Virus record (IMG/VR): IMGVR_UViG_3300045988_087795 | DNA from: a virus | DNA length: 60,937 bases | Reading direction: 5' to 3' (one strand) | In this document: in pieces, positions 1 to 60,937 of the stretch | How positions within the stretch are numbered: position 1 is the stretch's first letter | Layout of the letters: each line of letters begins with the position of its first letter | Program-made: the position numbers and the translations under genes | Notes under the pieces: generated by a model | Database searches by the model: none | Told to the model about the DNA's origin: nothing | The model's input: only the letters and a program-made list of their open reading frames with translations

Positions 1-80
1 GTTCGGCAACAATAACTCCTACAAGGATTCCAGCATCCACACATACCTGAACGGAACGTTCTACAACCTCATCGACAGCA
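1..80. repeat. Terminal redundancy, identical to 60858..60937 (circular-assembly overlap)
   Basis: The 80 nt gttcggcaacaataactcc...catcgacagca occur at both window ends, and a reading frame runs through them. Confidence 0.9.
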
Positions 81-1087
81 ACATCCGGGCGGCTATTAAG
101 CAGGTGAAAATCCCGTACCAGAACGGCACTGGTTCCGGCGGCAGCCTTGCCACCGGCTCCAACGGCCTGAGCACCAAAGTGTTCTTGCTGTCTGGTTATG
201 AGGTTGGTTGGACGACCAGCGACAACGGCTATTTCCCGAAGGACGGTGTGAGGCTGGCATACTTTGGCAACAGCTCCAGCGGTAACAGCAAGCGTATTGC
301 ATACAATGGCAGCTCCGCTGCCATTTGGTGGCTGCGCTCTCCGTACACCGACAGTGGCAACAGCGTCTGGGGCGTCGTCACCGATGGCTCCTACCGCTGC
401 GGCTGGTACAGCCACTCCTGTGGTGTTCGCCCCGCTTTCATTCTTCCCTCTACACTCGTGGTCTCTGACGACGGCACGGTCAGTGTCAACACTGCACCTA
501 CCGTCAGCACGGACGGCGCAGCTCTGGGGCGGAAGAACGCGGCCTTTGCGTGGAAGTACACCGTCAGGGATGCCGACGGCGACACCTTGACCGTCACCGA
601 AAAGCTGGACGGCAAGACCACCAAGGCCCACACCGGCGTTGCCAGCGGCACGGCTCTGACCTTTGAGCAGACGGCCAGCGCTGCCGGATTCCAGAAAATC
701 CTGAACGGCAACCACACCATCACCGTTGAGGTGAGCGACGGCAAGGAAACCGTCAGCACGTCCGCGACCTTTACCAAGGCCGTCCACGCCGCAAGCGTGA
801 CGCTGGCTGAACCGTTGGCCGTTGAGGGAGACATTACCGTTGCCGTGCTTCAGGTGACCGGCTCCATCCCCGATGATGCGAAGTTCAAAGCCGAAGTGAC
901 CAACAACGCACTCGACAGCTCCCCGGTCTGGCAGGATGCCACGACCGAGGTAAAAAAAGGCGTGAACATCGTCTTTGAGAATAAGACCGCCACCAACGGC
1001 GCGGCGTTTAACTTCCGCGTCAGCGTGGAGCGCGGCGAATCCGGCGAGGGCGGCTACATCGAAGCCGTCTCCGGCGCATTCCAGTAA
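2..1087 (+). CDS. DGR target protein, 3-prime part. Variable C-type-lectin-like (DUF6273/DUF1566-like) domain followed by an Ig-like C-terminal region. The 5-prime part is at 60685..60937; 419 aa in total. Probable tail fibre / receptor-binding protein.
   Basis: The frame is open from the window edge and continues in frame from the ATG at 60685 through the 80-bp overlap. Motifs KVFLLSGYE, WWLRSPY and GVRPAFIL. Contains the VR at 316..436. Confidence 0.85.
   Translation, partial: FGNNNSYKDSSIHTYLNGTFYNLIDSNIRAAIKQVKIPYQNGTGSGGSLATGSNGLSTKVFLLSGYEVGWTTSDNGYFPKDGVRLAYFGNSSSGNSKRIAYNGSSAAIWWLRSPYTDSGNSVWGVVTDGSYRCGWYSHSCGVRPAFILPSTLVVSDDGTVSVNTAPTVSTDGAALGRKNAAFAWKYTVRDADGDTLTVTEKLDGKTTKAHTGVASGTALTFEQTASAAGFQKILNGNHTITVEVSDGKETVSTSATFTKAVHAASVTLAEPLAVEGDITVAVLQVTGSIPDDAKFKAEVTNNALDSSPVWQDATTEVKKGVNIVFENKTATNGAAFNFRVSVERGESGEGGYIEAVSGAFQ
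316..436 (+). repeat. DGR variable repeat (VR)
   Basis: Ungapped 121-bp match to 59144..59264 with 14 mismatches, every one opposite an A in the other copy. Confidence 0.9.
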
Positions 1088-1767: not shown

Positions 1768-2253
1768 ATGAGCACCCAAGACTTACTTGCAGCAGCCGGA
1801 CTTGTGGCCGCCGGGCTTATGGCGGCCACAAGAATTTTTCAGATTAAAAAAATCGAAATCAACCCATGGAAGACCATCGTGCGGGCCATCGGCCGCGCCC
1901 TGACTGCGGAGCTTTCCGAGAAAATGGAGGCCGCGCAAAAAAGCCAGGACCAGAAGTGGGAGGAACTCAAGCACTACCAGGAGGAAACCCGGCGCCTCCT
2001 GGACGACCACGTCCGCACAGACGACGAGCGCAACGCGGACCTTTTGCGGAGCCGGATTCTTCGGTTTAACAATGAGCTTGTCCGCGGCATCGAGCACACC
2101 CAAGAGGACTTCGACGAGATTTTATGCATCGTTGACGATTACAGAACGTATTGCAAGTCGCACGAGGAGTATAAAAACAACAAGTGCACCCATGCTATTT
2201 CGAATATTGAGCGTTGCTATGATGAACGCCTGGAAAAGCACGACTTTCTTTAA
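1768..2253 (+). CDS. N-terminally membrane-anchored protein next to the lysis genes (function unknown, possibly holin-associated)
   Basis: ATG at 1768 preceded by gaaagaaggg. One hydrophobic helix (LLAAAGLVAAGLMAA), then a charged soluble domain. Confidence 0.5.
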   Translation: MSTQDLLAAAGLVAAGLMAATRIFQIKKIEINPWKTIVRAIGRALTAELSEKMEAAQKSQDQKWEELKHYQEETRRLLDDHVRTDDERNADLLRSRILRFNNELVRGIEHTQEDFDEILCIVDDYRTYCKSHEEYKNNKCTHAISNIERCYDERLEKHDFL

Positions 2254-2265
2254 GGAGGACTCGAA

Positions 2266-2895
2266 ATGATTTATAAGTACCTGGACGCCAGCCGCTACCA
2301 GGGGAAAATCGACTGGGACGCGGTGAAGCGCAGCGGGAAAATTGACGGTGCCATCCTGAAAACGGTTTCCACCAACAAGAGCTTCGGCGGCGTCTACATT
2401 GACCCCCAGTTTGAGCGCAACTATTCGGAATGCACCCGCCTGGGCATCCCTGTGGGCGCCTATTACTACACCTACGCCCAGAATGAGGCAGCCCGGGCCG
2501 TGGAGCTTGTGAAGGTGCGCCAGGCATTGACCGGCAAGACCTTCCAACTCCCCGTTGCCGTCGATGTGGAGGACAACAAGCTGAAACCCATCCCGGCCAA
2601 GGAACTTTCCGCCCTTGTGACGGGCGCTGCTAAACAGATCGAGGCCTGGGGCCTCTATGCCATGGTCTACACCTATACCAGCTACGCAAACACGGAGCTG
2701 GACATGGACGCCCTGAAAGCGTTTGACCTGTGGATCGCGGACTACCGCGGCAAGCGGCCCTCCCGCAAGCACGGTATCTGGCAGTATACCAGCGAGGGAA
2801 CCGTCCCCGGCATCACCGGCGACGTGGACCTGAACCACGCCTATAAAAATTACCCGGCCATCATTCAGAGGGCCGGGCTTTCTTCTATCCGCTAA
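2266..2895 (+). CDS. Endolysin, glycoside hydrolase family 25 muramidase
   Basis: LDASRYQGKIDWDAV, YYYTYA, PVAVDVED, WIADY, WQYTSEG..GITGDVDLN are GH25 hallmarks. Confidence 0.9.
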   Translation: MIYKYLDASRYQGKIDWDAVKRSGKIDGAILKTVSTNKSFGGVYIDPQFERNYSECTRLGIPVGAYYYTYAQNEAARAVELVKVRQALTGKTFQLPVAVDVEDNKLKPIPAKELSALVTGAAKQIEAWGLYAMVYTYTSYANTELDMDALKAFDLWIADYRGKRPSRKHGIWQYTSEGTVPGITGDVDLNHAYKNYPAIIQRAGLSSIR

Positions 2896-2913
2896 AATTG
2901 AAAGGAGAACACC

Positions 2914-3321
2914 ATGAAAGAGATTCTGACCCAGCTTCTTTTTTCCGTCCTGACCATCTGCACACCCCTGGCAATCGCATACGTTTACAAGGCGGCTGCT
3001 GCCATCAACGCCTCCACGGCCGAGAAGATCAAGAACGAGACCATCCAGCGCATTTGCTGCGAGATCACCGACGCCGTGGCGGATGCCGTGGCAGCCATGA
3101 ACCAGACCTATGTAAACGACCTGAAAAAGACCGGCTCTTTCGATAAGGCCGCCCAGGCCAAGGCATTGAATGGCGCAATTTCCGCCGCAATTAAGAGCCT
3201 GAGCAGCGACGCTCTGGACTACATCAAGGGAATTTCCGGCGGCGACACCGTGGGCTATCTGACCACGCGCATCCAGGCCCAGATCGACCGCAACAAGACG
3301 GCCAAGGCTGCGCAGCAGTAA
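2914..3321 (+). CDS. Holin, LL-H-like
   Basis: N-terminal TM helix (LLFSVLTICTPLAIAYVY) followed by a long Ala-rich amphipathic region. Sits directly after the endolysin. Confidence 0.65.
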   Translation: MKEILTQLLFSVLTICTPLAIAYVYKAAAAINASTAEKIKNETIQRICCEITDAVADAVAAMNQTYVNDLKKTGSFDKAAQAKALNGAISAAIKSLSSDALDYIKGISGGDTVGYLTTRIQAQIDRNKTAKAAQQ

Positions 3322-3357
3322 CGCCGCACACAAACCCCACCTAAGAGCATACGAAAG

Positions 3358-3394
3358 CCCCCCCCCCCCACCACCCCCCCCACACAACCCCCCC
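3358..3394. repeat. C-rich low-complexity tract (runs of C12, C8 and C7)
   Basis: Read directly: ccc ccccccccc a cc a cccccccc acacaa ccccccc, just after the holin stop. Confidence 0.9.
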
Positions 3395-3410
3395 AAAAGA
3401 GAATACAAAA

Positions 3411-3755: not shown

Positions 3756-4004
3756 ATGAGCAAGTATTATGAAGTTCGTTTTTACACAAAGAAGGGCGGG
3801 GAGCAAAGTTGGGTAATCCATGTTGAAGCGAAAACCGCCAAAGAGGCCAAAGAAATAGCAATTCATAAATGGGCTTGCGATAGTCGTTTCAGCGGTATGC
3901 ATCAATTTGGTATCAAGGTTCGTTTGCTTAAAGATAATGAAGAATATCGTTGGCATTACTTTGCAGTGGTCGGAGAAGGATGTTTCAACACTGCGGGACG
4001 CTGA
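3756..4004 (+). CDS. Hypothetical protein, visibly AT-richer than the genome
   Basis: RBS aaggaagga. 82-aa ORF. Confidence 0.55.
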   Translation: MSKYYEVRFYTKKGGEQSWVIHVEAKTAKEAKEIAIHKWACDSRFSGMHQFGIKVRLLKDNEEYRWHYFAVVGEGCFNTAGR

Positions 4005-4035
4005 TTAAGGTGCACTAAAGAGGGAGGGCAGAAAC

Positions 4036-4278
4036 ATGGAGAACATCACACCGTTTGACCTGGGCGGGCTGGCAAAGGACCTGGACAACCAGTTGATCGG
4101 GATGCGCAGCCCATTTGGGCCAGCAGAGGACCGGCCGTTGCATGAAGCAAGCTACGTTGGAATGAAACACGCGTTTGAAGCCCTTGGCGGCAAGTACAAG
4201 GTGGACAGGCACGGAAGCCACCGGCTTTTCTTGCTGGGCATTTCAAGCCAAGGATTCGATTACTATACGGAGGACTGA
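4036..4278 (+). CDS. Hypothetical protein
   Basis: RBS agagggaggg. 80-aa ORF. Confidence 0.55.
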   Translation: MENITPFDLGGLAKDLDNQLIGMRSPFGPAEDRPLHEASYVGMKHAFEALGGKYKVDRHGSHRLFLLGISSQGFDYYTED

Positions 4279-4281
4279 ACC

Positions 4282-4527
4282 ATGAAGAACGTTATTTTCA
4301 CCTACGACACTATCCAGAACGGCGAGCGCGGCGAGGCCTGCGCAATGATCCTAGTGGAGGACGCCCAGGCCTGGGCGCTTCAATCCGCCTTTAGCGAAAA
4401 GGACAACACCAAGGCAGGGCATTTTCTGAGAGAGCGCGGAATCGGCTTCTGCTGGAGCTGCGAGCACCTCCGCGGCCGCAGTTATGTTGAGAACAGCATT
4501 AAGAGCGTGGAAGTGAAGGAGGCATGA
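4282..4527 (+). CDS. Hypothetical protein
   Basis: RBS ggagga. Starts 3 nt after the upstream stop. 81 aa. Confidence 0.55.
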   Translation: MKNVIFTYDTIQNGERGEACAMILVEDAQAWALQSAFSEKDNTKAGHFLRERGIGFCWSCEHLRGRSYVENSIKSVEVKEA

Positions 4528-4530
4528 ACG

Positions 4531-4695
4531 ATGAAGCGTTACCAGATTTTGTACAACAAGGCCGGTTTCCCGCTCTGTGTTTGGAAGTCATCCGAGGAGG
4601 AGGCCCGCAGCTTTGCAAACAGGTTTCGGGCTGCTGGATACTCCGTTGATGTGTGGGAACACACGGAGACCGGCGCGCGCAAAACCAACATCTAA
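4531..4695 (+). CDS. Hypothetical protein (54 aa, not in the ORF track)
   Basis: RBS aaggagg and ATG 4531. MKRYQILYNKAGFPLCVWKSSEEEARSF... Confidence 0.45.
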   Translation: MKRYQILYNKAGFPLCVWKSSEEEARSFANRFRAAGYSVDVWEHTETGARKTNI

Positions 4696-4790
4696 CCCCG
4701 CCTGATGATGGCCCGAGGAAAAGGCCGAAACCACCCGGCAGCCAGCCGGGCAAGGTCGCGGGAACCATACCGCAGAGAGGAGCACAGAGC

Positions 4791-5030
4791 ATGGACAAAG
4801 TTAAATTCTTCAACCAGCAGTTGAACGGCCAGATTGTTATGGCGGAGCTTGAAGCGGAGCACCTGGCAAAATCAATTCGACTGCTTTCCGAGGGTGACGA
4901 CTATGTGGCCTGGGCTGGCGAGGTGGCAAATTACGCGACCACACTAAACCAGCTTGCGGAGGTTCTCACCGCACTGCGGAAGGTGGCGCGCGATTCGGAA
5001 ATTTTGATGGAACGGGAGGAAAAGGCATGA
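4791..5030 (+). CDS. Hypothetical protein
   Basis: Internal ATG preceded by gagaggag. The upstream part of the track ORF is Pro/Arg-rich and unlikely to be coding. Confidence 0.5.
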   Translation: MDKVKFFNQQLNGQIVMAELEAEHLAKSIRLLSEGDDYVAWAGEVANYATTLNQLAEVLTALRKVARDSEILMEREEKA

Positions 5031-5443
5031 GTGCAAAAACGATTTACAAGACCCTGGCGCCCTTCTTCGATGCCGTGGACGGCACCGAAGAAAAGGTCTT
5101 GAAGTTCACGGCCCCGGGCTATATGGACCTGTGCATCGAGGCCTTGGGCTACAATGACCACGAGGGCCGCCCGGTGTATTCCGTGGCCCACTATGGGGAG
5201 CAGAACGGCGACCTTATGCGGGACCCGGATGTGACCATGGGCGTTGACCGGGAAACCGGTACCGTGGAAGCGCTGACCTACCAGAACGACTACATCGGCC
5301 GCTATTGGGAAGTTTACAAAGACTTCGTGGACGGAAAGCCCACAAAATACTATCCGGCCATGAAAAAGGACCTTGCCGCCATGGTGACGGCCTGGGCGAA
5401 GAACATAAAGGCCCAGGGCTTCAACCCTGCGGTTCATGCGTAA
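5027..5443 (+). CDS. Conserved hypothetical protein. The YGEQNGDLMRDP motif resembles proteins common on Firmicute conjugative elements; the family name is uncertain.
   Basis: ATGA overlap with the upstream stop. 138 aa. Confidence 0.6.
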   Translation: MSAKTIYKTLAPFFDAVDGTEEKVLKFTAPGYMDLCIEALGYNDHEGRPVYSVAHYGEQNGDLMRDPDVTMGVDRETGTVEALTYQNDYIGRYWEVYKDFVDGKPTKYYPAMKKDLAAMVTAWAKNIKAQGFNPAVHA

Positions 5444-40006: not shown

Positions 40007-40405
40007 ATGAGCATGATCGGTACTGCAACCAATTCCAGCCCGTACCTGGCCGCGCCTGCTGCTGCGACCATCGAGAACGGCAAGAATCACTTCGTCACCC
40101 TGGGCGAGAACGGCGTTTCCCTGGCTACCGAGGGCGCCGCCGCTGCGGGCATCCTGCTGCCTGACACCGAGGACAAGGTGGCGGCAGGCGAGAGCGTGAC
40201 CGTGCAGATCAAGGACCGCACCCTGGTCCAGGTTGGCGCGGCCGTTACTGCTGGCGACCCGCTGGCAAGTGACGCCAACGGCTGCGCCGTGAAGGCTGCG
40301 GCGGAAAAGTTCATCGTTGGCTATGCCATGGAGAGCGCGACCGCCGCGGACCAGATTATCCACATCCAGATCACCAAGAGCGGCTTTGTGCCGAAGGCGG
40401 GCTAA
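40007..40405 (+). CDS. DUF2190-like head decoration protein
   Basis: Gly/Ala-rich beta-type sequence, AAGESVTVQI...VTAGDPLASDANG. Position just before the capsid gene. Confidence 0.55.
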   Translation: MSMIGTATNSSPYLAAPAAATIENGKNHFVTLGENGVSLATEGAAAAGILLPDTEDKVAAGESVTVQIKDRTLVQVGAAVTAGDPLASDANGCAVKAAAEKFIVGYAMESATAADQIIHIQITKSGFVPKAG

Positions 40406-40423
40406 AGGAAGGAGAGATAAACA

Positions 40424-41452
40424 ATGAGCAACACCAAAAACACCACCGCTGGCATTGCGGCCGAGATCGCAAAAGGCTGGCAGCCCAACAACTACCTGAC
40501 CAATATGTCCATGGCTTACTTCCAGAAGCCGGAGGACTATGTGGCACACAGCATTTTCCCGGTCTGCCCGGTGCAGCTGTCCGCTTCCTACTACTACACG
40601 TTCAGCAAGGAAGATCTGGCCCGTGACAACGTACAGCCCAAGCCCGCCTTCGGCAAGGTTGACCCCGCTGTGATGGGCCAGGACGACAACACCTACAAGT
40701 GCCACGTTGACCAGATCATCCTTGGCATTGACCAGATCGCCGCCCTGAACTACCAGCGCAGCCGTGCCCCCGGCGTGAACGACCCCCGCCGCGCCAAGGT
40801 CCGCACCGCCACTGAACAGATGCTTCTCCACCAGGACATTCTTTTCGCAAAGAACTTTTTCCATGCTGGCGTCTGGGCAAACGAGCTGACCGGCACCACC
40901 AACGGCAGCGGCTCTAAGGAGTTCGTGAAGTTCAACGACACTTCTTTTGACCCCATCGGCTTCTTCGACGACCTGCGCACCGAGATCAAGCGCCAGGGCC
41001 GCCGTACCCCGAACCGCCTGGCGCTGGGCATCCAGGCTTACAACGCCCTGAAAAACAACCCCTTCGTCAAGGAGAGCGTGAAGTACACCGGCACCACCGC
41101 GAACCCCGCCATCGTTACGCCCAACGTGCTGGCGCAGCTTTTCGGCGTTGAGCAGGTGAAGGTCCTGGAATCTACCTACAACTCCGCAGGCCTGGGCCAG
41201 AAGGAGAGCATGGAGTTCATTTGCGACCCCAAGGCTGCACTTCTGTGCTACGCCACCCCGACCCCGCAGATCGACGAGCCTTCCGCAGGCTACATTTTCA
41301 CCTGGGATATGCTGGGCAACGGCGCTTCTGTCGCCTTTGACCAGTACGAGGGTGAAAACGGCACCCATGCGGAGTTTATCGAAGGCCTGTGCGCTTCCGA
41401 CATGAAGAAGACTTCTGACGACCTGGCAATCTTCCTGAAAGAGTGCGTCTAA
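40424..41452 (+). CDS. Major capsid protein (lambda gpE-like family)
   Basis: Size, position and strong RBS. N-terminal YFQKPEDYVAHSIFPVCPV pattern. Confidence 0.75.
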   Translation: MSNTKNTTAGIAAEIAKGWQPNNYLTNMSMAYFQKPEDYVAHSIFPVCPVQLSASYYYTFSKEDLARDNVQPKPAFGKVDPAVMGQDDNTYKCHVDQIILGIDQIAALNYQRSRAPGVNDPRRAKVRTATEQMLLHQDILFAKNFFHAGVWANELTGTTNGSGSKEFVKFNDTSFDPIGFFDDLRTEIKRQGRRTPNRLALGIQAYNALKNNPFVKESVKYTGTTANPAIVTPNVLAQLFGVEQVKVLESTYNSAGLGQKESMEFICDPKAALLCYATPTPQIDEPSAGYIFTWDMLGNGASVAFDQYEGENGTHAEFIEGLCASDMKKTSDDLAIFLKECV

Positions 41453-54879: not shown

Positions 54880-55649
54880 GCACCCGGAAGAACTTCGACC
54901 TTGAAAAATTCCCCGAAAACCGCGTTTCCCAGCGCATGATCTCCCGCGTTTCGCCTATCTATGAGCGGTCCTATGTGGCGAAGTGGCTTTATGAGGTCAT
55001 GGGCCAGGAGGTGGACGACGCGGAGATCCGCTTCTCGGAACTGCGGGAGCAGGCAAACCCGGAAACGGCAACTTGGGCCCTGCGCTACTGGGAGCAGCGT
55101 TACGGCATCGAGGTGGACGAGAGCCGGAGCCTGGCAGCCCGCCGGGCGGACATAATCGCCCGCCGCGGCGCCCGTGCTCCGATGAACCCGGAACGTTTCA
55201 AAAGGATTCTTGAAGCAACAACGCAATGCGACGTGGAAATTAGAGAGTATATCGCACCGTATACTTTTGGCGTTTATCTGAAAGCAGATGATGCGGAGGA
55301 AGTAAATGTTCTTCGCATTGTAAAGCAGATAAAGAAAATTAAACCGTCGCATTTGACATATCGCCTATCTCTGCTGTATCAGCCGAAAACGAAGCTCGCG
55401 TATATTTCCGGGAAATTATACAATGTTAATGCATCCTGCACCATCCGGCTGCCGGGTGTGATTCAGCCGCGAGCTGTTGGTGCTACGGCATACACCGCCG
55501 GAGCTGCTGCATCGGCAAGGATGATGGCGGAAGTTAAGCTCCCCGGAATCATTGCCCCGAAATCCGTTTCCGCGCAAGCCTATGCCGCAGGCAGGCTTGC
55601 ACACACACATGAAACCGTAACCATTACGATTGGAGGACAGACAACGTGA
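54876..55649 (+). CDS. XkdU/YmfQ-like tail protein
   Basis: WALRYWEQRYGI...ARRADIIARR. ATGA overlap with the upstream gene. Confidence 0.7.
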   Translation: MSTRKNFDLEKFPENRVSQRMISRVSPIYERSYVAKWLYEVMGQEVDDAEIRFSELREQANPETATWALRYWEQRYGIEVDESRSLAARRADIIARRGARAPMNPERFKRILEATTQCDVEIREYIAPYTFGVYLKADDAEEVNVLRIVKQIKKIKPSHLTYRLSLLYQPKTKLAYISGKLYNVNASCTIRLPGVIQPRAVGATAYTAGAAASARMMAEVKLPGIIAPKSVSAQAYAAGRLAHTHETVTITIGGQTT

Positions 55650-56773
55650 GTTGGGAAAAATCCAGTTACACGAAAGCCGGTGCCGCCCTGCTGTCGGAAT
55701 CTCTCTCCGGCGGCGCACTGACCATTACCCGCGCCGCGAGCGGCACCGGCTCTGTTGACACCGACCTGTCGGCAGAAACCGCAGTCAGCGGCGACACGCA
55801 CGAGCTGTCCTTGCTGGGCATTGAAACCGTCACGGACGACGGCAAAACCGCCCGCAAGGTCAGCATTCAGGCCACCGGTGCAGCAGATACCTACGTTATG
55901 CACCAGATCGGCGTTTTCGGTGTCTTGAACGATGGCGCAGAAACGCTCCTGTTTATCATGCAGGATGAACGCGGCATTGAAGTCCCTGCCGCAAGCACGA
56001 ACTCCGAGTTTTCGTTTGAAATCGCCGTCCTGCTGGCTGTTTCGGCAGAAGCCAACATGTCCATCGCCGTTGACCCTCAGGTGCAGGCGTTGATGAAGCT
56101 GGTCAAAGCCGAGATCGAGAAGCACAATGCCAATGCCGACGCCCATGCGGCGACAATCACGGCAGCGGTCAGCGCAGCCGTGAAGAACCTGTCTGAATCC
56201 GGGGAAATCCTGAACGAAGAACAGGTAAAGGCTCTTATCAAGGAGCAGGTGGACGGCTGCACAGGCGGCGGCTACTATGGCTCCTACGAACTCACCCTTG
56301 CGGCTGACGGGTGGAAGCCCGCTCGCAGCGAGGATGATTACGAAAACGCTGGCGGTATGGATTACTACCAGTGCATTTATGATGCAGAACTGTCGGACAG
56401 CACCAGCGAGCTTGTACCCGTTGGCGTTGTATCTCCCGGCAGCTTCTATACTACGACCAAAGCGGGCGTCCTGAACGGGTGCGAAACGCATGATGGTTTC
56501 ATAAGATTTTTCGCTCAGCGCATCCCGGAAGCAGATATTCAGGCGACCGTAACCCTGTTCGGGAAAGGAGGTGGTTCGGGTGAAACCGGTAGCGTAAGCA
56601 TCGGTCAGGGCTTGAAGCGTGACGCGAGCGGCGCTATTGCCGTCCGCATTGGCGAAGGCCTTGACTTTGACAGCGCAAACGCGCTGACTGTCCGCAAAGA
56701 AACCGTTATGACGAGCGAAGACCTGCTGAACGAGGAAGAAACGCAGCAGGAAATCGTTGATATGCTGAAATAA
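55646..56773 (+). CDS. Tail fibre protein (N-terminal tail-collar-like region)
   Basis: GTGA overlap. TKAGAALLSESLSGGALTITRAASGTG...HQIGVFG. Confidence 0.6.
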   Translation: MSWEKSSYTKAGAALLSESLSGGALTITRAASGTGSVDTDLSAETAVSGDTHELSLLGIETVTDDGKTARKVSIQATGAADTYVMHQIGVFGVLNDGAETLLFIMQDERGIEVPAASTNSEFSFEIAVLLAVSAEANMSIAVDPQVQALMKLVKAEIEKHNANADAHAATITAAVSAAVKNLSESGEILNEEQVKALIKEQVDGCTGGGYYGSYELTLAADGWKPARSEDDYENAGGMDYYQCIYDAELSDSTSELVPVGVVSPGSFYTTTKAGVLNGCETHDGFIRFFAQRIPEADIQATVTLFGKGGGSGETGSVSIGQGLKRDASGAIAVRIGEGLDFDSANALTVRKETVMTSEDLLNEEETQQEIVDMLK

Positions 56774-56791
56774 TTTTAGGAGGACACTATT

Positions 56792-57661
56792 ATGTCTAAG
56801 CAGATTTCTACCAAGACCACCATCCGCAACCTGACCGCCGAGATTAAGAAGACCTTCGTTAAGAAGGACGCCTTTACCCCTGTGCAGACCGCAGCCAACG
56901 CTGCTATCAAGTCTCTTGGCGTTGACGGCAACACCGTGAACTTCTACACCTCTACCGACAAGAGCGGCACTGCTGCTTTCTCCGTTGACTTCCCCTCTGA
57001 GCTGTTCCTCGACCAGACCAAGACCACCTTCGTGGCCAAGTTCAAGTTCGATGCTGCGACCTACCCCGGCGCTACCGACCCCAAGCTGGACGGCAAGCCC
57101 GTCATGGTGCTGGCCGTCAAGGGCGAGAATCCTGACTCCTGCACCTACTCTTTCCTGAGCATGGCTGCGCTGGTGGATACCTACAAGGCTAAGGCCGTCG
57201 GCAAGGATGCTTCCACCACCGTTACCATCGCTGGCTATGAGGTGGATGTCAAGGTCAATGTTTCCGCTGCTGCGGGCAACGCTCTGACCCTGAAGGACGA
57301 CGGTCTGTATGTTCCCACCCCTGAGGAAGTGGACATTTCCGGCAAGGCCGATAAGGTCACTGGTGCTACCACCGGCAACCTCGCTGCGCTGGACGGCGAG
57401 GGCAACCTGACCGACAGCGGCAAGAAGCCTGCCGACTTTGTGGCCGCCGAGGCTGGCAAGCGCCTGATGACCGATGCCGAGGGCGAAAAGCTGGCCGGTG
57501 TCTCTGAGGGTGCCACCAAGACCGCAGCCAGCTCCACCAACGGCAATGTGAACATTGACGGCAAGGAAGTCGTCGTGTACACCGAGCCGGAGAATGTTCT
57601 GCACGACGAGGATGTGGAGGACTTCTCCGCAGAGGAGATCGCCGCTCTGCTGGCTGACTAA
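56792..57661 (+). CDS. Fibre-associated structural protein, hypothetical
   Basis: Strong RBS taggagga. Codon usage is visibly more biased than in neighbouring genes. Confidence 0.5.
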   Translation: MSKQISTKTTIRNLTAEIKKTFVKKDAFTPVQTAANAAIKSLGVDGNTVNFYTSTDKSGTAAFSVDFPSELFLDQTKTTFVAKFKFDAATYPGATDPKLDGKPVMVLAVKGENPDSCTYSFLSMAALVDTYKAKAVGKDASTTVTIAGYEVDVKVNVSAAAGNALTLKDDGLYVPTPEEVDISGKADKVTGATTGNLAALDGEGNLTDSGKKPADFVAAEAGKRLMTDAEGEKLAGVSEGATKTAASSTNGNVNIDGKEVVVYTEPENVLHDEDVEDFSAEEIAALLAD

Positions 57662-57681
57662 GACATGAGGAGGTAAGCTCT

Positions 57682-58131
57682 ATGGCAAAAGCGAAGATCA
57701 AAACGCTTTTGGGCACAGGGCTTGCCGCGCTTTGCAGCCACATCAAGCAGTGCAACACCGCACTCGGAGACCTTTCCGAAGCAACGGCAAACGGATTCGA
57801 GGAAACCGATGACATCCTGCACGAAAAGCAGGATGTCACGGCTGCGGTGTCTTTTACGATTCCGGTCGATGGCTGGGGCGAGGATGATTCCTCCCCCGGC
57901 TATTTTTATTGTGACATCCCCATTGCGGGCCTGTTGGCTACCGACATTGTGGATGTTACGGTACTGCCGGAATTTTACGATGTGGCGGGTGCGGTGGGTT
58001 TTATTGCGACCGAAAGCCTCGAAGGAAAGCTGCGGCTGAGGGCCGCCAAAGCTCCGACCGAGAAAATTTCTGCACAGTATCACATTACAAGCACCGTGAA
58101 ATACACGGCTGCACAGGAAGGGGAAACCTAA
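57682..58131 (+). CDS. Hypothetical fibre-module protein
   Basis: gaggagg RBS. Confidence 0.5.
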   Translation: MAKAKIKTLLGTGLAALCSHIKQCNTALGDLSEATANGFEETDDILHEKQDVTAAVSFTIPVDGWGEDDSSPGYFYCDIPIAGLLATDIVDVTVLPEFYDVAGAVGFIATESLEGKLRLRAAKAPTEKISAQYHITSTVKYTAAQEGET

Positions 58132-58518
58132 ATGGCATACGGTTCTTTTAACGCAGGCCCCGGCAAGGCGCCGGATGAAGATGTTGTCCGCACTAACCAG
58201 ATCGGCGTGCCGGGCGGCATTGCCACGCTGGATGCTGACGGCCATTTGACCGAATCGCAGCGTCCGGCGGTGGACGCATACACCAAGGCTGAAACCGACC
58301 AGCGCATCAGCGCGGCCGTTGACAACCACAACGGTGCGGAGAACGCCCACAGCGACATCCGTGCCAGTGTGGCAGCTATGAACGCCAGCATCAAGGCCAT
58401 TGAGCTGAAGTTCAGCACAAACGTGACGAAAAATCCTTTTTCCGCCACGTTCAGCAGCCTTGACGGCCTGACCGTCACCGGCGTGTGGAACGCAGAACAG
58501 GCGAGGGTGGAGTTCTGA
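58132..58518 (+). CDS. Hypothetical fibre-module protein
   Basis: IGVPGGIATLDADGHL is a motif common in phage fibre proteins. Confidence 0.5.
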   Translation: MAYGSFNAGPGKAPDEDVVRTNQIGVPGGIATLDADGHLTESQRPAVDAYTKAETDQRISAAVDNHNGAENAHSDIRASVAAMNASIKAIELKFSTNVTKNPFSATFSSLDGLTVTGVWNAEQARVEF

Positions 58519-59093
58519 TGGCTGAAACATTCAAGGTCGGCGCGAATGCGCGGGAGCTGTTGCGCTACACTCAGAGGGCAACCCGCATCGTCACCGATGA
58601 CATCAGCCGGAGCGATGCCCGGAAGATCATCCAGAAAGTCGCGGCGCTCGAAGATGTGCGCGACATCCAAAAGTTGTGCGGCACTGCCGTCCATGCACTC
58701 GACACACGGGACAGGGAGGGCTTTTCCAAAAGCACTTTCCGTCTGTACGGTGAGGGCATCCGGCTGACTGCCCGGCAAATCCTGCTGGATGCACACGCGG
58801 CGAACAACGTCAATTTCCAGACCGACTACGACAAGCGCGTTGAGAAGATCGGCGCAGTTGTGGACGGTTGCTCTCTGCTACTGGAATACCTGACCATCTG
58901 CACGGAGGAAGGCATCATCAGTGCGAAGAAAGCCGGTATCTGGACAAAGAAGGTCACGGACGTAAAATACCCGGCGATGAAGTGGCTCACGTCGGAACGC
59001 GGACGTGCCGAAAAACTCCGGGCAGAAGCGGAACGGAAACGGCTGACCGAACAGGCCGCCGCCCTGAAAGCCGTCCTTTACCCGGAACCGTAA
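58518..59093 (+). CDS. avd: Avd-like DGR accessory protein (helical-bundle type), unusually long at 191 aa
   Basis: TGATG overlap with the upstream stop. Pattern ARQILLDAHAAN...KRVEKIGAVVDGCSLLLEYLTICTEEGIISAKKAGIWTKKVTDV..MKWL. Lies directly upstream of the TR. Confidence 0.55.
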   Translation: MAETFKVGANARELLRYTQRATRIVTDDISRSDARKIIQKVAALEDVRDIQKLCGTAVHALDTRDREGFSKSTFRLYGEGIRLTARQILLDAHAANNVNFQTDYDKRVEKIGAVVDGCSLLLEYLTICTEEGIISAKKAGIWTKKVTDVKYPAMKWLTSERGRAEKLRAEAERKRLTEQAAALKAVLYPEP

Positions 59094-59104
59094 ACGCACA
59101 GCTG

Positions 59105-59140
59105 GCAACCGCTTTGCATAAAGGGTGCGGTTTGTTTGTC
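59105..59140 (+). terminator. Weak hairpin plus T-rich run between avd and the TR
   Basis: aaccgc (59107..59112) pairs with gcggtt (59127..59132), followed by tgtttgt. Confidence 0.3.
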
Positions 59141-59143
59141 TGT

Positions 59144-59264
59144 CGCTGCCATTTGGTGGCTGCGCTCTCCGTACACCAACAATAACAACAGCGTCTGGGA
59201 CGTCGACACCGATGGCTCCTACAACTACAACTGGTACAACAACTCCTATGGTGTTCGCCCCGCT
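59144..59264 (+). repeat. DGR template repeat (TR)
   Basis: 121-bp ungapped match to VR 316..436. In the VR frame it reads AAIWWLRSPYTNNNNSVWDVDTDGSYNYNWYNNSYGVRPA, with 8 AAY codons. Confidence 0.9.
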
Positions 59265-59434
59265 CTGATGGAACCGTGTGACGAGTAGGCATAAGCTGAA
59301 AGCAGTGCGCCCATCAAAGGAAACCGCATCCTGTCGCTTGCCGATGCAGGCAAGTGATAAATACATCCCGCTGAGGTGGGCCATCTCTGCCGGATGCAGC
59401 CCACTACCGTAACGCGAACCAGCGGAGGGTCATT
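59265..59434 (+). ncRNA. TR-RT spacer, probably part of the DGR template RNA
   Basis: Non-coding. Hairpins at 59335..59356 (cgcttgcc-gatgca-ggcaagtg) and 59376..59404 (gtgggc...gcccac). Confidence 0.4.
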
Positions 59435-60664
59435 TTGACATACGAAGAACTGTGCAGCTTTGAGGTACTTTACAAAGCCTACCTTGAAGCCCGGAAGGGA
59501 AAGCGCAGTAAAAGCAAAACAATCGAGTACGAGGCGCAGGCGCTGGCCTGCACGGAAAAGCTCTCCCGTAAGCTGGCTGTCTGCAATGTGCGGCAGCCAG
59601 ACGGGAGCATTCGGCAGCAGATACGCTATGTGCCAAGTAAGTTTGAGGTCTTTGCCGTCTACGAGCCGAAGCGCCGCATGGTACACGCCCCCGCATTTGT
59701 GGACAAGGTGGTGCTGCACGCTCTGGTCGATAACATCCTGTATGATGCCCTGACAAAGAGCTTTATCCGGGACAGCCACGCCAGCCAGACCGGAAAAGGC
59801 ACAGACGACGGCCTGATGCGCCTGAAAACCCACATGGTGGACTATTACCGCCGTGAGGGCCACGGCGCGGACGGCTGGGTGCTGAAAGGCGACGTGCGGC
59901 ATTTCTTCGCCAGCATCGACCACCGGAAGCTAAAACGCAAGCTCAAAGCCGTGCTGGACAAGCGCGGCATTGACCCGCGTGTCTATGAGCTGCTTTGCAT
60001 CTACATCGACGTGATGGAGGACGGCTTGCCGCTGGGCTACCAGACGAGCCAGCTTTTCGCCCTCATGTTTTTGGACGAGTTCGACCACATCATCAAAGAA
60101 AAGTACCGCATCAAATACTATGGCCGATACATGGATGATTTCTACATCATCTGTTCGGACAAGAAGAAATTGCAGTGCATTCTCCGGGATGTTCGGGCGC
60201 TCATGGACAGTTACGGCCTTGAGCTGAACCAGAAAACCGCCATTTTCCCGCTGCGGAACGGTATTGATTTTCTGGGATTCCATAGCTACCTGACCGACAC
60301 CGGCGCGGTCATCCAAAAGCTGCTCCGGGATAGCTCCAAGCGGATGAAGAACAAGATCAGATATTGGGAGACGGCATACCCCGCAGGCGAAGTGACCAAG
60401 CAGGAAATCCTGCGGAGCTTTGATGCGTGGGATGCCCATGCCGCCCATGGTGATACTTACTCTTTACGCCGCAAGTACGCTGACCGGCTCGAAAAATTGC
60501 TTGACTGTAAAATCCCTATCCATCGAAAAATCAACTCGAACAAACTCGCGCGTGACAGACGGCGGGCGAGGCAATGCCGCTGCATCTACAAGAAGCAGCA
60601 CAAAGCCCTGTCCCTCTCTGTATCGCAGAACACGCGGCCCGCGGAGATCATGCCGTGGGCCTGA
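59435..60664 (+). CDS. DGR reverse transcriptase
   Basis: TTG start after ggaggg. LPLGYQTSQLFALMFL (SQ-type motif of DGR RTs) and GRYMDDFYII. No maturase or endonuclease tail. Confidence 0.85.
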   Translation: MTYEELCSFEVLYKAYLEARKGKRSKSKTIEYEAQALACTEKLSRKLAVCNVRQPDGSIRQQIRYVPSKFEVFAVYEPKRRMVHAPAFVDKVVLHALVDNILYDALTKSFIRDSHASQTGKGTDDGLMRLKTHMVDYYRREGHGADGWVLKGDVRHFFASIDHRKLKRKLKAVLDKRGIDPRVYELLCIYIDVMEDGLPLGYQTSQLFALMFLDEFDHIIKEKYRIKYYGRYMDDFYIICSDKKKLQCILRDVRALMDSYGLELNQKTAIFPLRNGIDFLGFHSYLTDTGAVIQKLLRDSSKRMKNKIRYWETAYPAGEVTKQEILRSFDAWDAHAAHGDTYSLRRKYADRLEKLLDCKIPIHRKINSNKLARDRRRARQCRCIYKKQHKALSLSVSQNTRPAEIMPWA

Positions 60665-60684
60665 ACGAAAACAAGGAGGTAACA

Positions 60685-60937
60685 ATGGCAAACGTAAAAC
60701 TGGGCACGAAAGCCGTTGGCAGCATTGTCAAAATCAAAGTCAACGGCGCGTCCAAAGATTTTATTGTTGTGCAGCAGGGCAACCCGAACACCAGCACCTA
60801 TGATTCGAGTTGCAATGGAACGTGGCTGCTGATGAAGGACATCTACACCACGTCCACGTTCGGCAACAATAACTCCTACAAGGATTCCAGCATCCACACA
60901 TACCTGAACGGAACGTTCTACAACCTCATCGACAGCA
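60685..60937 (+). CDS. DGR target protein, 5-prime part (runs off the window end and continues at 81..1087)
   Basis: aaggagg RBS and ATG 60685. MANVKLGTKAVGSIVKIKVNGASKDFIVVQQ... has no stop before the window end. Confidence 0.85.
   Translation, partial: MANVKLGTKAVGSIVKIKVNGASKDFIVVQQGNPNTSTYDSSCNGTWLLMKDIYTTSTFGNNNSYKDSSIHTYLNGTFYNLIDS
60858..60937. repeat. Terminal redundancy, identical to 1..80
   Basis: Direct comparison of both ends. Confidence 0.9.

Follow-up and report, generated by a model that had tools for sequence, protein, structure and literature searches.

We asked whether the DGR in a 60,937-nt stretch of viral DNA (the window, analysed at its full length) departs from the known layout as far as an earlier note had claimed, with the target gene downstream of the RT gene and the VR in the middle of the target protein, and what the diversified protein may do for the phage. 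The DGR is real and the earlier observation is correct, yet it is not new: both the layout and a tentaclin target that begins with its lectin head have already been published.

The target gene and the DGR core

Positions 1-80 of the window are an exact 80-nt terminal direct repeat of 60858-60937, and the window is a circular or circularly permuted phage genome in which this repeat is the assembly overlap. When one copy is left out, 60685..60937 and 81..1087 join into 1260 nt that encode 419 aa with no stop and no frameshift, and a ribosome-binding site, AAGGAGG, precedes the start at 60685 by 7 nt. The single ORF that had been drawn across the join was borne out, as the exact end repeat legitimises joining the two parts. 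Homologues of 418-421 aa are present on hundreds of independent contigs. These full-length homologues rule out a reading of the ORF as two genes and, together with the end repeat, a reading as an assembly artefact; the C-terminal ~215 aa are part of the same gene, as the earlier note had held, and not a separate one.

Upstream of the target, all on the + strand, lie avd, the TR and the RT gene in this order (Table 1), exactly as first described. Both proteins were identified by PHROG profiles, the RT by Pfam as well; no Pfam or NCBIfam match was found for Avd, whose homologue in FP_Toutatis (gp79) is labelled Avd in RefSeq. The avd ATG overlaps the stop codon of an upstream 128-aa tail-module ORF (58132-58518). 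The RT translation includes YMDD and LGYQTSQ, and [ILV]GxxxSQ is the signature of DGR RTs. It is not a group II, retron or Drt enzyme, because its NCBIfam matches to those types were all below cut-off. The locus thus has a DGR-type RT adjoining the TR and an accessory Avd gene.

The TR is the sole other copy of the VR repeat within the window. The two copies differ at 14 positions, 14/14 of which are TR adenines; across the 121 nt no other base has drifted. This pattern is far from chance; the TR has just 28 adenines. Twenty TR codons carry an A at position 1 or 2 and are potentially variable; the count of 12 variable residues given earlier has to be corrected to 11 that differ between the TR-encoded and VR-encoded peptides. 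The spacer between TR and RT gave a sub-threshold full-length match to the Rfam RT-2 RNA (RF03077; 59272-59448, 21.4 bits, E 0.029). FP_Toutatis, L061 and L071 likewise have RT-2 matches at this position of the spacer, which score 21.9-27.7 bits against a gathering score of 40. The spacer presumably forms the 3' portion of the DGR RNA and, by analogy with the Bordetella DGR, may take part in priming.

Table 1. Features of the DGR locus in the window
Feature	Position	Strand	Description
End duplicate	1..80	.	Copy of 60858-60937; left out when joining the gene
Target (tentaclin) gene, remainder	81..1087	+	Codons 85-419 and TAA stop; 96% identical to FP_Toutatis gp82 (419 aa)
DUF6273 / C-type-lectin-like domain, 3' part	81..463	+	Residues ~1-212; domain starts at 60685
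VR	316..436	+	121 nt; from the third base of codon 163 to the end of codon 203; AAIWWLRSP...GVRPA
Linker FILPSTLVVSDDGTVSV	437..487	+	Conserved in FP_Brigit and relatives of 65-97% identity
Two-part hairpin	476..504	+	Present as first described; dG -6.1 kcal/mol
Internal Ig-like beta-sandwich domain	488..775	+	Residues ~221-316; seven AF2 strands, pLDDT up to 87
C-terminal beta domain (probable tentaclin 'Cterm_Ig')	791..1084	+	Residues ~322-419
avd (accessory variability determinant)	58518..59093	+	191 aa; phrog_3206 'Avd protein of DGR', E 5.7e-36, residues 1-191
TR	59144..59264	+	121 nt, 28 adenines; ungapped alignment to VR
TR-RT spacer	59265..59434	+	Starts with IMH*-like sequence diverging from the VR flank
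DGR reverse transcriptase	59435..60664	+	409 aa; Pfam RVT_1 E 3.3e-19; phrog_1423 E 5.2e-121
Target (tentaclin) gene, 5' part	60685..60937	+	Codons 1-84 and one base

The same order, TR/VR pair and 419-aa target occur in FP_Toutatis (NC_047915; gp79 Avd, gp81 RT, gp82 target), whose DGR was reported in 2018 (PMC5883640), and in phage Lelie (PP479942), whose VRs were reported in 2024 to map to the C-terminus of DUF6273 (PMC11792537). Nucleotide identity to these two phages is 96.4-96.7% over 58100-60937 and 95-97% over 55629-60937 plus 1-1487; only this ~6.8-kb module is held in common, and within it the VR differs at adenine-derived sites. The rest of the 60.9-kb genome gave no megablast match to Lelie, and positions 8000-30000 had no match in the phage collection. 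Unlike the window, Lelie has a second, small DGR target (orf58); neither a second VR of this kind nor an orf58 homologue was found in the window.

Architecture and likely role of the target

The VR had been placed at about codons 164..203 of the 419-aa protein, and these coordinates were confirmed, with 216 residues following it. Pfam DUF6273 matched at full length at residues 44-208, so that the proposed lectin-like nature of the VR region withstood the profile search, and the VR occupies the C-terminal end of this domain; a relaxed Pfam scan of the lectin domain returned DUF6273 only, with no weak DUF1566 or FGE-sulfatase match. An AF2 model computed from an alignment of 58 sequences, including relatives of 32-62% identity, reached a pLDDT of 82.9 (∼95 in the N-terminal domain), while a model made with the 118 homologues at >=90% identity (pLDDT 47.5, lectin domain ∼25) was discarded. 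The VR strands of the retained model are 167-172, 179-183, 189-193, 197-200 and 203-206, and the strands 179-183 and 189-193, inside the VR, have a pLDDT of ∼96. In the Ig/cadherin-like segment that had been noticed after the VR, AF2 predicts a beta-sandwich, in line with Pfam matches to Big_9 (E 2.9e-4) and Cadherin_5 (E 0.019), neither of which reached the cut-off. The last domain is modelled with moderate confidence (pLDDT 55-77) and keeps a TNN..D..P.W motif; across 9 diverse sequences, 11 residues do not vary (F315, P348, T358, N359, N360, D363, P366, W368, F383, N385 and G403). Thus AF2 and Pfam both agree with the earlier description of a variable lectin-like module at the N-terminus and constant domains at the C-terminus, the constant part consisting of beta-sandwich domains. 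When the whole three-domain model was used as the Foldseek query, Ig/Fn3 proteins dominated, and the 50 matches listed included neither Mtd nor TvpA; the best PDB structural match has a C-type-lectin-like N-terminal domain, and the BFVD structural matches are phage DUF6273 proteins. Single-sequence and profile searches for PDB relatives returned nothing meaningful.

The tentaclin family was defined by Baykov 2023 through its architecture of an N-terminal C-lec domain plus Ig, with nd4_tgt1 and nd12_tgt1 as founders, and the FP_Toutatis group is the third largest group of tentaclin phages (PMC10743442). [quoted passage not shown] As in tentaclins, the target here has an N-terminal, DUF6273-like C-lec domain with the VR as a surface beta-hairpin (Pfam, AF2), and its gene is directly downstream of the RT gene; the AF2 beta-sandwich 225-316 and beta domain 322-418 fit the Ig-like part of the family, in which Ig-like domain(s) are followed by a conserved C-terminal Ig-like domain. 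Over the C-terminal 212 aa (both domains), identity is 40% to nd12 tgt1 (E 4e-40) and reaches 50% with FP_Brigit gp60; compared with the founding tentaclins, the lectin domains are only ∼30% identical. The nd4 and nd12 tentaclins differ in having 569-579 aa and additional domain(s), whereas our target has 419 aa and one internal Ig-like domain. Because the target belongs to these published proteins, the architecture that had been proposed is correct but not new.

Our reading, to which we assign a probability of about 0.85, is that the window carries a complete DGR, active in nature, in a Faecalibacterium/Oscillospiraceae phage, that a tentaclin is the one target of the DGR in this genome, and that the element works in the following manner. 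The TR and the downstream spacer would be transcribed, probably together with avd and the RT gene in a late tail operon. From 55000 to 1800 (across the join) no terminator-like site was found on the + strand, and promoter and terminator scans gave counts at or below shuffled-sequence levels. An RT-Avd complex would copy the TR RNA into cDNA, misincorporating opposite adenines, and the cDNA would replace the VR, with homing guided by the GC-rich VR end and the diverging flank (a putative IMH of presumed extent). The rewriting would affect at most 20 codons, which encode a beta-hairpin and loops where the N-terminal DUF6273 domain ends. The Ig-like and the conserved C-terminal domain would stay constant and most likely act as stalk and virion anchor, and the variable lectin head would then point outward. 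That such a target is mounted by its C-terminus was proposed by Baykov 2023 (PMC10743442) and is probably the case here. The different display of the variable face that the earlier note had envisaged therefore stands as to the N-terminal head and the probable C-terminal mounting, but it had already been put forward in that work.

What could such a head bind? The target might be the primary receptor-binding protein for the host, like Mtd of the Bordetella phage, with DGR variation switching host tropism. Its gene is positioned in the tail-fibre module, its variable domain is lectin-like, as is that of Mtd (PMC10743442), proteins named 'Receptor Binding Protein' and 'Tail-collar fiber protein' are among its BFVD structural neighbours, and it is the sole DGR target in the window. 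However, a conserved tail fibre distinct from the target is encoded just upstream (55646-56773, phrog_27381), along with further fibre-like ORFs, and in the related phages Lelie, nd4 and nd12 there is a second target, Mtd-like or small, which is possibly the true receptor-binding protein. Moreover, relatives exist that have a tentaclin but no adjacent DGR, and variation is therefore dispensable. We consider this role possible, although unlikely.

A Hoc-like head decoration, whose C-terminal domain binds the capsid lattice and whose DGR-varied lectin head binds mucin glycans or gut surfaces and not the bacterial host, appears improbable to us. T4 Hoc, whose C-terminal domain binds the capsid, is also a chain of N-terminal Ig-like domains, and it shares with the target an elongated beta-sandwich chain with a distal N-terminal end and a presumed C-terminal attachment. 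The top PHROG of the target is phrog_10993, 'Hoc-like head decoration', RefSeq labels Toutatis gp82 and Brigit gp60 in the same way, and the possibility was discussed by Cornuault 2018 and Baykov 2023. However, the PHROG label stems from Ig-like similarity only, and T4 Hoc has no lectin head and a different anchoring domain (PMC10743442). It is not DGR-diversified either, and its genomic context is not a tail module, whereas the baseplate/tail-fibre module ends with the target gene, which in cassette-free relatives comes directly after a small tail-module ORF. In addition, Lelie has a separately annotated head decoration protein (orf7), and Hoc is absent among the PDB (50) and BFVD (50) matches listed for the target model.

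Natural variation and homing signals

For the preferred reading, a DGR that diversifies a tentaclin, activity is seen in natural variation. In an alignment of the target and 118 homologues of >=90% identity, entropy per column was 1.14 bits in the VR compared to 0.14 and 0.19 bits in the flanks, and every column above 2 bits corresponded to a TR codon with an A at position 1 or 2. As the variation among these close homologues is confined to A-bearing TR codons, the DGR is active in nature; its activity in this particular genome is suggested by the 14 differences at A sites. Each of the 49 viral loci in which avd, RT and target follow in this order has a TR of its own, a TR/VR match is detectable in 48, and ∼90-100% of the mismatches are at TR adenines. 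Reads of phage Lelie showed no variation peak at the VRs (PMC11792537), and activity may therefore be conditional. The missing read-level variation in Lelie would also agree with a decaying relic whose VR differences are historical, as would the loss of the cassette in some relatives and the locus L074, where the cassette adjoins a target with a VR that has lost its match to the TR. For the DGR studied here we regard this as very unlikely: avd, RT, TR and target are all intact, the 14 mismatches are confined to adenines, and near-identical genomes bear different VRs, each of which matches its own TR except at adenines.

The GC-rich 3' end of the VR, GGTGTTCGCCCCGCT (422-436), is identical in VR and TR, and the two flanks diverge from 437 and 59265 onward, as in the IMH/IMH* layout; GGTGTTCGCCCCGCT is likely the start of the IMH. 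If there is a homing signal 3' of the VR, it has to be coded within the ORF, in the linker that follows. The synonymous-codon entropy of codons 204-225 is 0.27 as compared to a gene mean of 0.43, which puts synonymous variation in this linker ∼40% below the mean. Two other regions are equally low, and the reduction is only suggestive of an embedded cis element.

The earlier note had also pointed to a weak hairpin ∼40 nt after the VR. It is present and weak (Table 1), but folding, shuffles, a search for inverted repeats and counts of intact pairs across 18 diverged sequences did not support it as a conserved or functional element, and it is probably not functional. That it serves, within coding sequence, as a cruciform-type homing enhancer as in the Bordetella and Legionella DGRs is highly improbable: it folds with a z of -2.84 when alone, 87% of alignment cells are paired and synonymous variation is somewhat lower after the VR, but z is only -1.16 in a 91-nt context, the stem is short, not GC-rich and ∼40 nt away from the VR, and the pairs 53/79, 60/67 and 61/66 are lost, with no compensating change, in 5-7 of the 18 diverged relatives (the DGR-bearing L057, L064, L070, L071, L073 and L084 included), with a double change in one cell each only. 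Downstream of the IMH no GC-rich inverted repeat was found, only this weak, non-GC-rich, non-conserved hairpin; such a repeat is not universal and occurs in only 34% of catalogued DGRs (PMC5758913).

Gene order and the avd-TR-RT cassette

Finally, we asked why the target lies downstream of the RT. The layout does differ from that of the BPP-1 prototype (mtd-avd-TR-brt), in which the target is upstream of the core. Both DGRs have the Avd, TR and RT core, adenine-specific transfer from TR to VR, and a VR with a GC-rich end at the C-terminal end of a lectin-like fold; the BPP-1 target is a phage structural protein, as the target here is predicted to be. In BPP-1 the VR is at the extreme C-terminus of the protein, whereas here the lectin domain stands at the N-terminus with 216 constant residues behind it, the VR has no conserved GC-rich inverted repeat downstream, and the target has no detectable sequence similarity to Mtd. 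However, what had been called a non-canonical layout is not new, as catalogues list 35-48 cassette architectures with the target position varying around the avd-TR-RT core (PMC5758913, PMC11661182). The VR place was likewise called non-canonical; it is indeed mid-protein, but at the level of the domain it is the usual one, the C-terminal end of DUF6273. The avd-RT-target order on one strand was found in 49 of 61 related viral loci and in 11 of the 19 bacterial prophage loci that have enough upstream sequence, and also in phage nd12 and FP_Brigit.

In these relatives avd-TR-RT behaves as a precise presence/absence cassette immediately upstream of the tentaclin gene. The same junction lacks it in at least 10 related loci, and there only a 15-20-nt spacer with a ribosome-binding site separates the last tail-module ORF from the tentaclin gene. 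In our main reading the order avd-TR-RT-target arises because avd-TR-RT, as a discrete cassette, sits between these two genes. Tentatively, and with more doubt than confidence, we further propose that avd-TR-RT (58518-60664) is gained and lost as a discrete unit, docking exactly at the junction of the last tail-module ORF with a tentaclin gene that was already there.

As the element, the gene order and the target architecture have been published for near-identical phages, the observation as first stated adds little. It does mean that a VR need not be at the C-terminus of a protein: the rule fits the lectin domain, not the whole protein. Human gut metagenomes contain this tentaclin module in great abundance (at least 8000 protein clusters at 90% identity match a search for it, one of them with 29,878 members). 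If DGR cores spread in the proposed way, recruiting downstream lectin-fold genes, homing signals would be located inside the coding linker after the VR. This, if true, would counter the published idea that VRs are found at protein C-termini because cis elements require non-coding DNA (PMC8144416). Loci with and without the cassette beside the target form a natural set in which to compare what the phage gains from diversification, and this set also bears on where homing signals are located when they share their sequence with a reading frame.

The DGR and its tentaclin target

The two ends of the window, positions 1-80 and 60858-60937, repeat each other exactly over 80 nt in direct orientation. 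The contig represents a circular or circularly permuted phage genome that has been opened within the target gene of the diversity-generating retroelement (DGR), so that on this linear record gene callers will split the target or truncate it. When the sequence was re-read, the coordinates and gene order in the earlier note and its claim of a 419-aa open reading frame with no stop all proved correct, and a strong AAGGAGG ribosome-binding site was present upstream of this frame. The avd gene, the template repeat (TR), the spacer and the RT gene all lie on the strand of the target and upstream of it.

Features of the DGR region (window positions unless a related viral locus, L0xx, is named)
Feature	Position	Strand	Description
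avd	58518-59093	+	191 aa; PHROG 'Avd protein of DGR', E 5.7e-36
TR	59144-59264	+	121 nt
TR-RT spacer	between TR and RT	+	170 nt
RT-2 RNA, sub-threshold matches	59272-59448; L001 5176-5352; L061 2582-2762; L071 2585-2765	+ (window)	syntenic position in TR-RT spacer
RT	59435-60664	+	409 aa; RVT_1, phrog_1423; LGYQTSQ and YMDD in translation
Target ORF	60685..60937 + 81..1087, joined	+	1260 nt, 419 aa, free of stops and frameshifts
Variable repeat (VR)	316-436	+	last base of codon 163 to codon 203; sole other copy of TR in window

From 58100 to the window end the DNA is 96.4-96.7% identical to the Faecalibacterium phages FP_Toutatis and Lelie, where the annotated order is Avd, RT and a 419-aa 'Hoc-like' protein. 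The Toutatis DGR was reported by Cornuault et al. 2018, who could not assign a function to its target (PMC5883640), the targets in Lelie were shown by Gulyaeva et al. 2024 to have a DUF6273 domain whose C-terminal end holds the VR (PMC11792537), and the FP_Toutatis group is the third largest among the tentaclin-bearing phages of Baykov et al. (PMC10743442). A DGR with a tentaclin target is therefore an element already described in near-identical phages. The last 212 residues of the target are 40% identical to nd12_tgt1, a founder of the tentaclin family (E 4e-40), and 50% identical to gp60 of phage FP_Brigit, and 11 residues of the C-terminal domain, including the TNN..D..P.W motif, are invariant in nine diverse sequences. 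At the level of sequence, these matches support membership of the tentaclin family. As in the window, the tentaclin genes of nd12 and Brigit lie directly 3' of RT. We put the probability that the region is a DGR with a tentaclin at about 85%.

Several smaller elements were seen in and around the cassette. The Rfam RT-2 RNA (RF03077) gave full-length but sub-threshold matches (21-28 bits versus a gathering score of 40) that recur in the TR-RT spacer of four diverged loci; this spacer may be a distant relative of the RT-2 motif and form the 3' portion of the DGR RNA. A 50-aa open reading frame (MSVAAIWWLRSPYTNNNN...) at 59136-59288 (+) is the TR read as protein. Its FP_Toutatis equivalent is annotated in RefSeq as a CDS (gp80, 'DUF6273 domain-containing protein'), and this CDS is almost certainly an artefact of annotating the template repeat. 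A promoter-like site at 58941-58968 (+) matches 10/12 positions (TGGACA, 16-nt spacer, TAAAAT) in the 3' part of avd, ~175 nt 5' of TR; promoter-like sites in the region were no more numerous than in shuffled sequence. Long antisense frames at 55580-57604 (-), 57658-58530 (-) and 2122-3408 (-), of 674, 290 and 428 aa, run across tail-fibre and lysis genes; rich in Gly, Ala and Arg, they are probably spurious, arising from high G+C content.

Position of the VR and layout of the cassette

The earlier note had called the layout non-canonical. Set against BPP-1 the layout is indeed atypical, yet it falls within a class already documented, and the VR lies at the canonical place for its domain: Pfam DUF6273 is complete at residues 44-208 (profile positions 1-172 of 172, E 1.9e-36), so that the VR forms the C-terminal end of the domain, its usual place at this level. 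A further 216 residues follow the VR. In an AlphaFold2 model built from a deliberately diverse alignment (pLDDT 82.9 overall), the N-terminal domain (~residues 1-212) reached ~95, with VR strands at 167-172, 179-183, 189-193, 197-200 and 203-206, followed by a beta-sandwich at 225-316 and a second beta domain at 322-418 (pLDDT 55-77). In Pfam, the segment after DUF6273 gave Big_9 and Cadherin_5 matches, both sub-threshold. Three homologous proteins, P0137 (639 aa), P0177 (854 aa) and P0183 (909 aa), carry 2 or 3 tandem DUF6273 domains and then the internal Ig-like and C-terminal domains of the target; by their predicted domains they are multi-headed tentaclins.

DGR cassette architectures have been catalogued as 48 (PMC5758913) or 35-38 (PMC11661182) types, with the prototype VR-TR-RT and VR-VR-TR-RT together making up ~60%. 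VRs typically lie at protein C-termini, for the suggested reason that cis elements can then be intergenic (Roux et al. 2021, PMC8144416), and 5'-proximal VRs are rare among phage DGRs (Baykov et al., PMC10743442). Within the family of the target, the 'unusual' form with a long C-terminal part is common: among the best 150 50%-identity cluster representatives matching the domain, at least 100 residues followed DUF6273 in 83 and 30 or fewer in 54. Of the related viral loci whose upstream sequence was long enough, 61 in all, 49 had the order avd-RT-target on one strand, and in 48 of these 49 a TR was detected ~1.4-1.5 kb 5' of the target, with ~90-100% of mismatches at adenines. Prophage loci from Oscillospiraceae genomes, Faecalibacterium among them, had the same order in 11/19 cases, with target identity as low as 57-60%.

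A hairpin at 476-504, pointed out earlier as lying after the VR, was not supported as a functional element. Over its 29 nt the predicted fold has -6.1 kcal/mol and a z-score of -2.84 in isolation, although the element was hand-picked; in a 91-nt context the z-score is -1.16. Three of its pairs are disrupted, with no compensating change, in 5-7 of 18 distinct relatives' sequences, a double change occurs in only two single cells, and several relatives with a broken stem have the DGR. A GC-rich inverted repeat is present in only 34% of catalogued DGRs (PMC5758913). We interpret the hairpin as arising incidentally from the coding sequence. Homing signals could nevertheless be embedded in the coding sequence after the VR: synonymous-codon entropy was 0.27 bits in codons 204-225 versus a gene mean of 0.43, and ~40% lower over ~25-30 codons (window 437-520, codons 204-231). 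As codons 96-110 and 291-305 were equally low, such a cis element is only a possibility.

Presence and absence of the cassette in a mosaic genome

In the related loci L049, L058, L059, L065, L068, L075 and L083 (~3950-4005 in each), and similarly in L069, L077 and L080, the tentaclin start codon comes 15-20 nt after the stop codon of a homologue of ORF 58132-58518, with a ribosome-binding site in the spacer between them, whereas in the window 58518-60664 separates the two genes. On this comparison avd-TR-RT is a precise presence/absence cassette, which is new here. The VR equivalents of the cassette-free loci differ from the window TR at A and non-A sites alike. In L074 (IMGVR_UViG_3300029338_000131), avd and RT are 99% and TR (2460-2580) 95% identical to those of the window, but the adjoining target (4001-5275) is of the cassette-free type, as in L075; VR and TR align over only 78 nt at 73%, with 7/21 mismatches at adenines. 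L074 thus looks like a mismatched cassette/target pair made by recombination.

Similarity to Lelie is limited to 55629-60937 and 1-1487, a ~6.8-kb tail-fibre/DGR/tentaclin block of 95-97% identity, and megablast of 8000-30000 against a 50,697-record phage collection gave no match, so this block is a mosaic module. Past the end of the similarity the window encodes an endolysin at 2266-2895 (phrog_291), while Toutatis and Lelie have a peptidase-type endolysin gene there. The genome as a whole is a mosaic whose backbone is unrecorded.

Diversification of the target

TR and VR differ at 14 sites, 14/14 at TR adenines, and the peptides that they encode differ at 11 residues, not at the 12 counted previously. 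An A occupies codon position 1 or 2 in 20 TR codons. In an alignment of the target with 118 homologues, each of at least 90% identity, mean column entropy was 1.14 bits at residues 163-203, compared to 0.14 before and 0.19 after, and every column that exceeded 2 bits corresponded to a TR codon bearing A at its first or second position. Entropy was zero at the scaffold residues W167, L169, R170, S171, P172, W181, G187 and V200-A203, and W168, V180, V183 and W193 were nearly invariant. With this pattern, natural populations carry the signature of A-directed mutagenesis in progress. The VRs of Lelie showed no read-level variation (PMC11792537), so the activity of the DGR may be conditional. Lelie also has a second DUF6273 target, orf58 (215 aa; Lelie 40024-40671, VR 40451-40554), served by the same TR; in contrast, neither a second VR nor an orf58 homologue was found across the whole window.

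On the favoured reading, the DGR-diversified tentaclin would be displayed on the virion via its C-terminal domains, with a presumed mode of anchoring and a presumed ligand. The homologue search returned at least 8000 clusters at 90% identity, most of those listed being singletons and one having 29,878 members, because A-directed mutagenesis diversifies the VR. Hypervariation of ~17 residues thus appears to scatter a single abundant gut-phage protein over thousands of clusters, and this VR-driven fragmentation is a caveat on protein-cluster counts in gut viromes.
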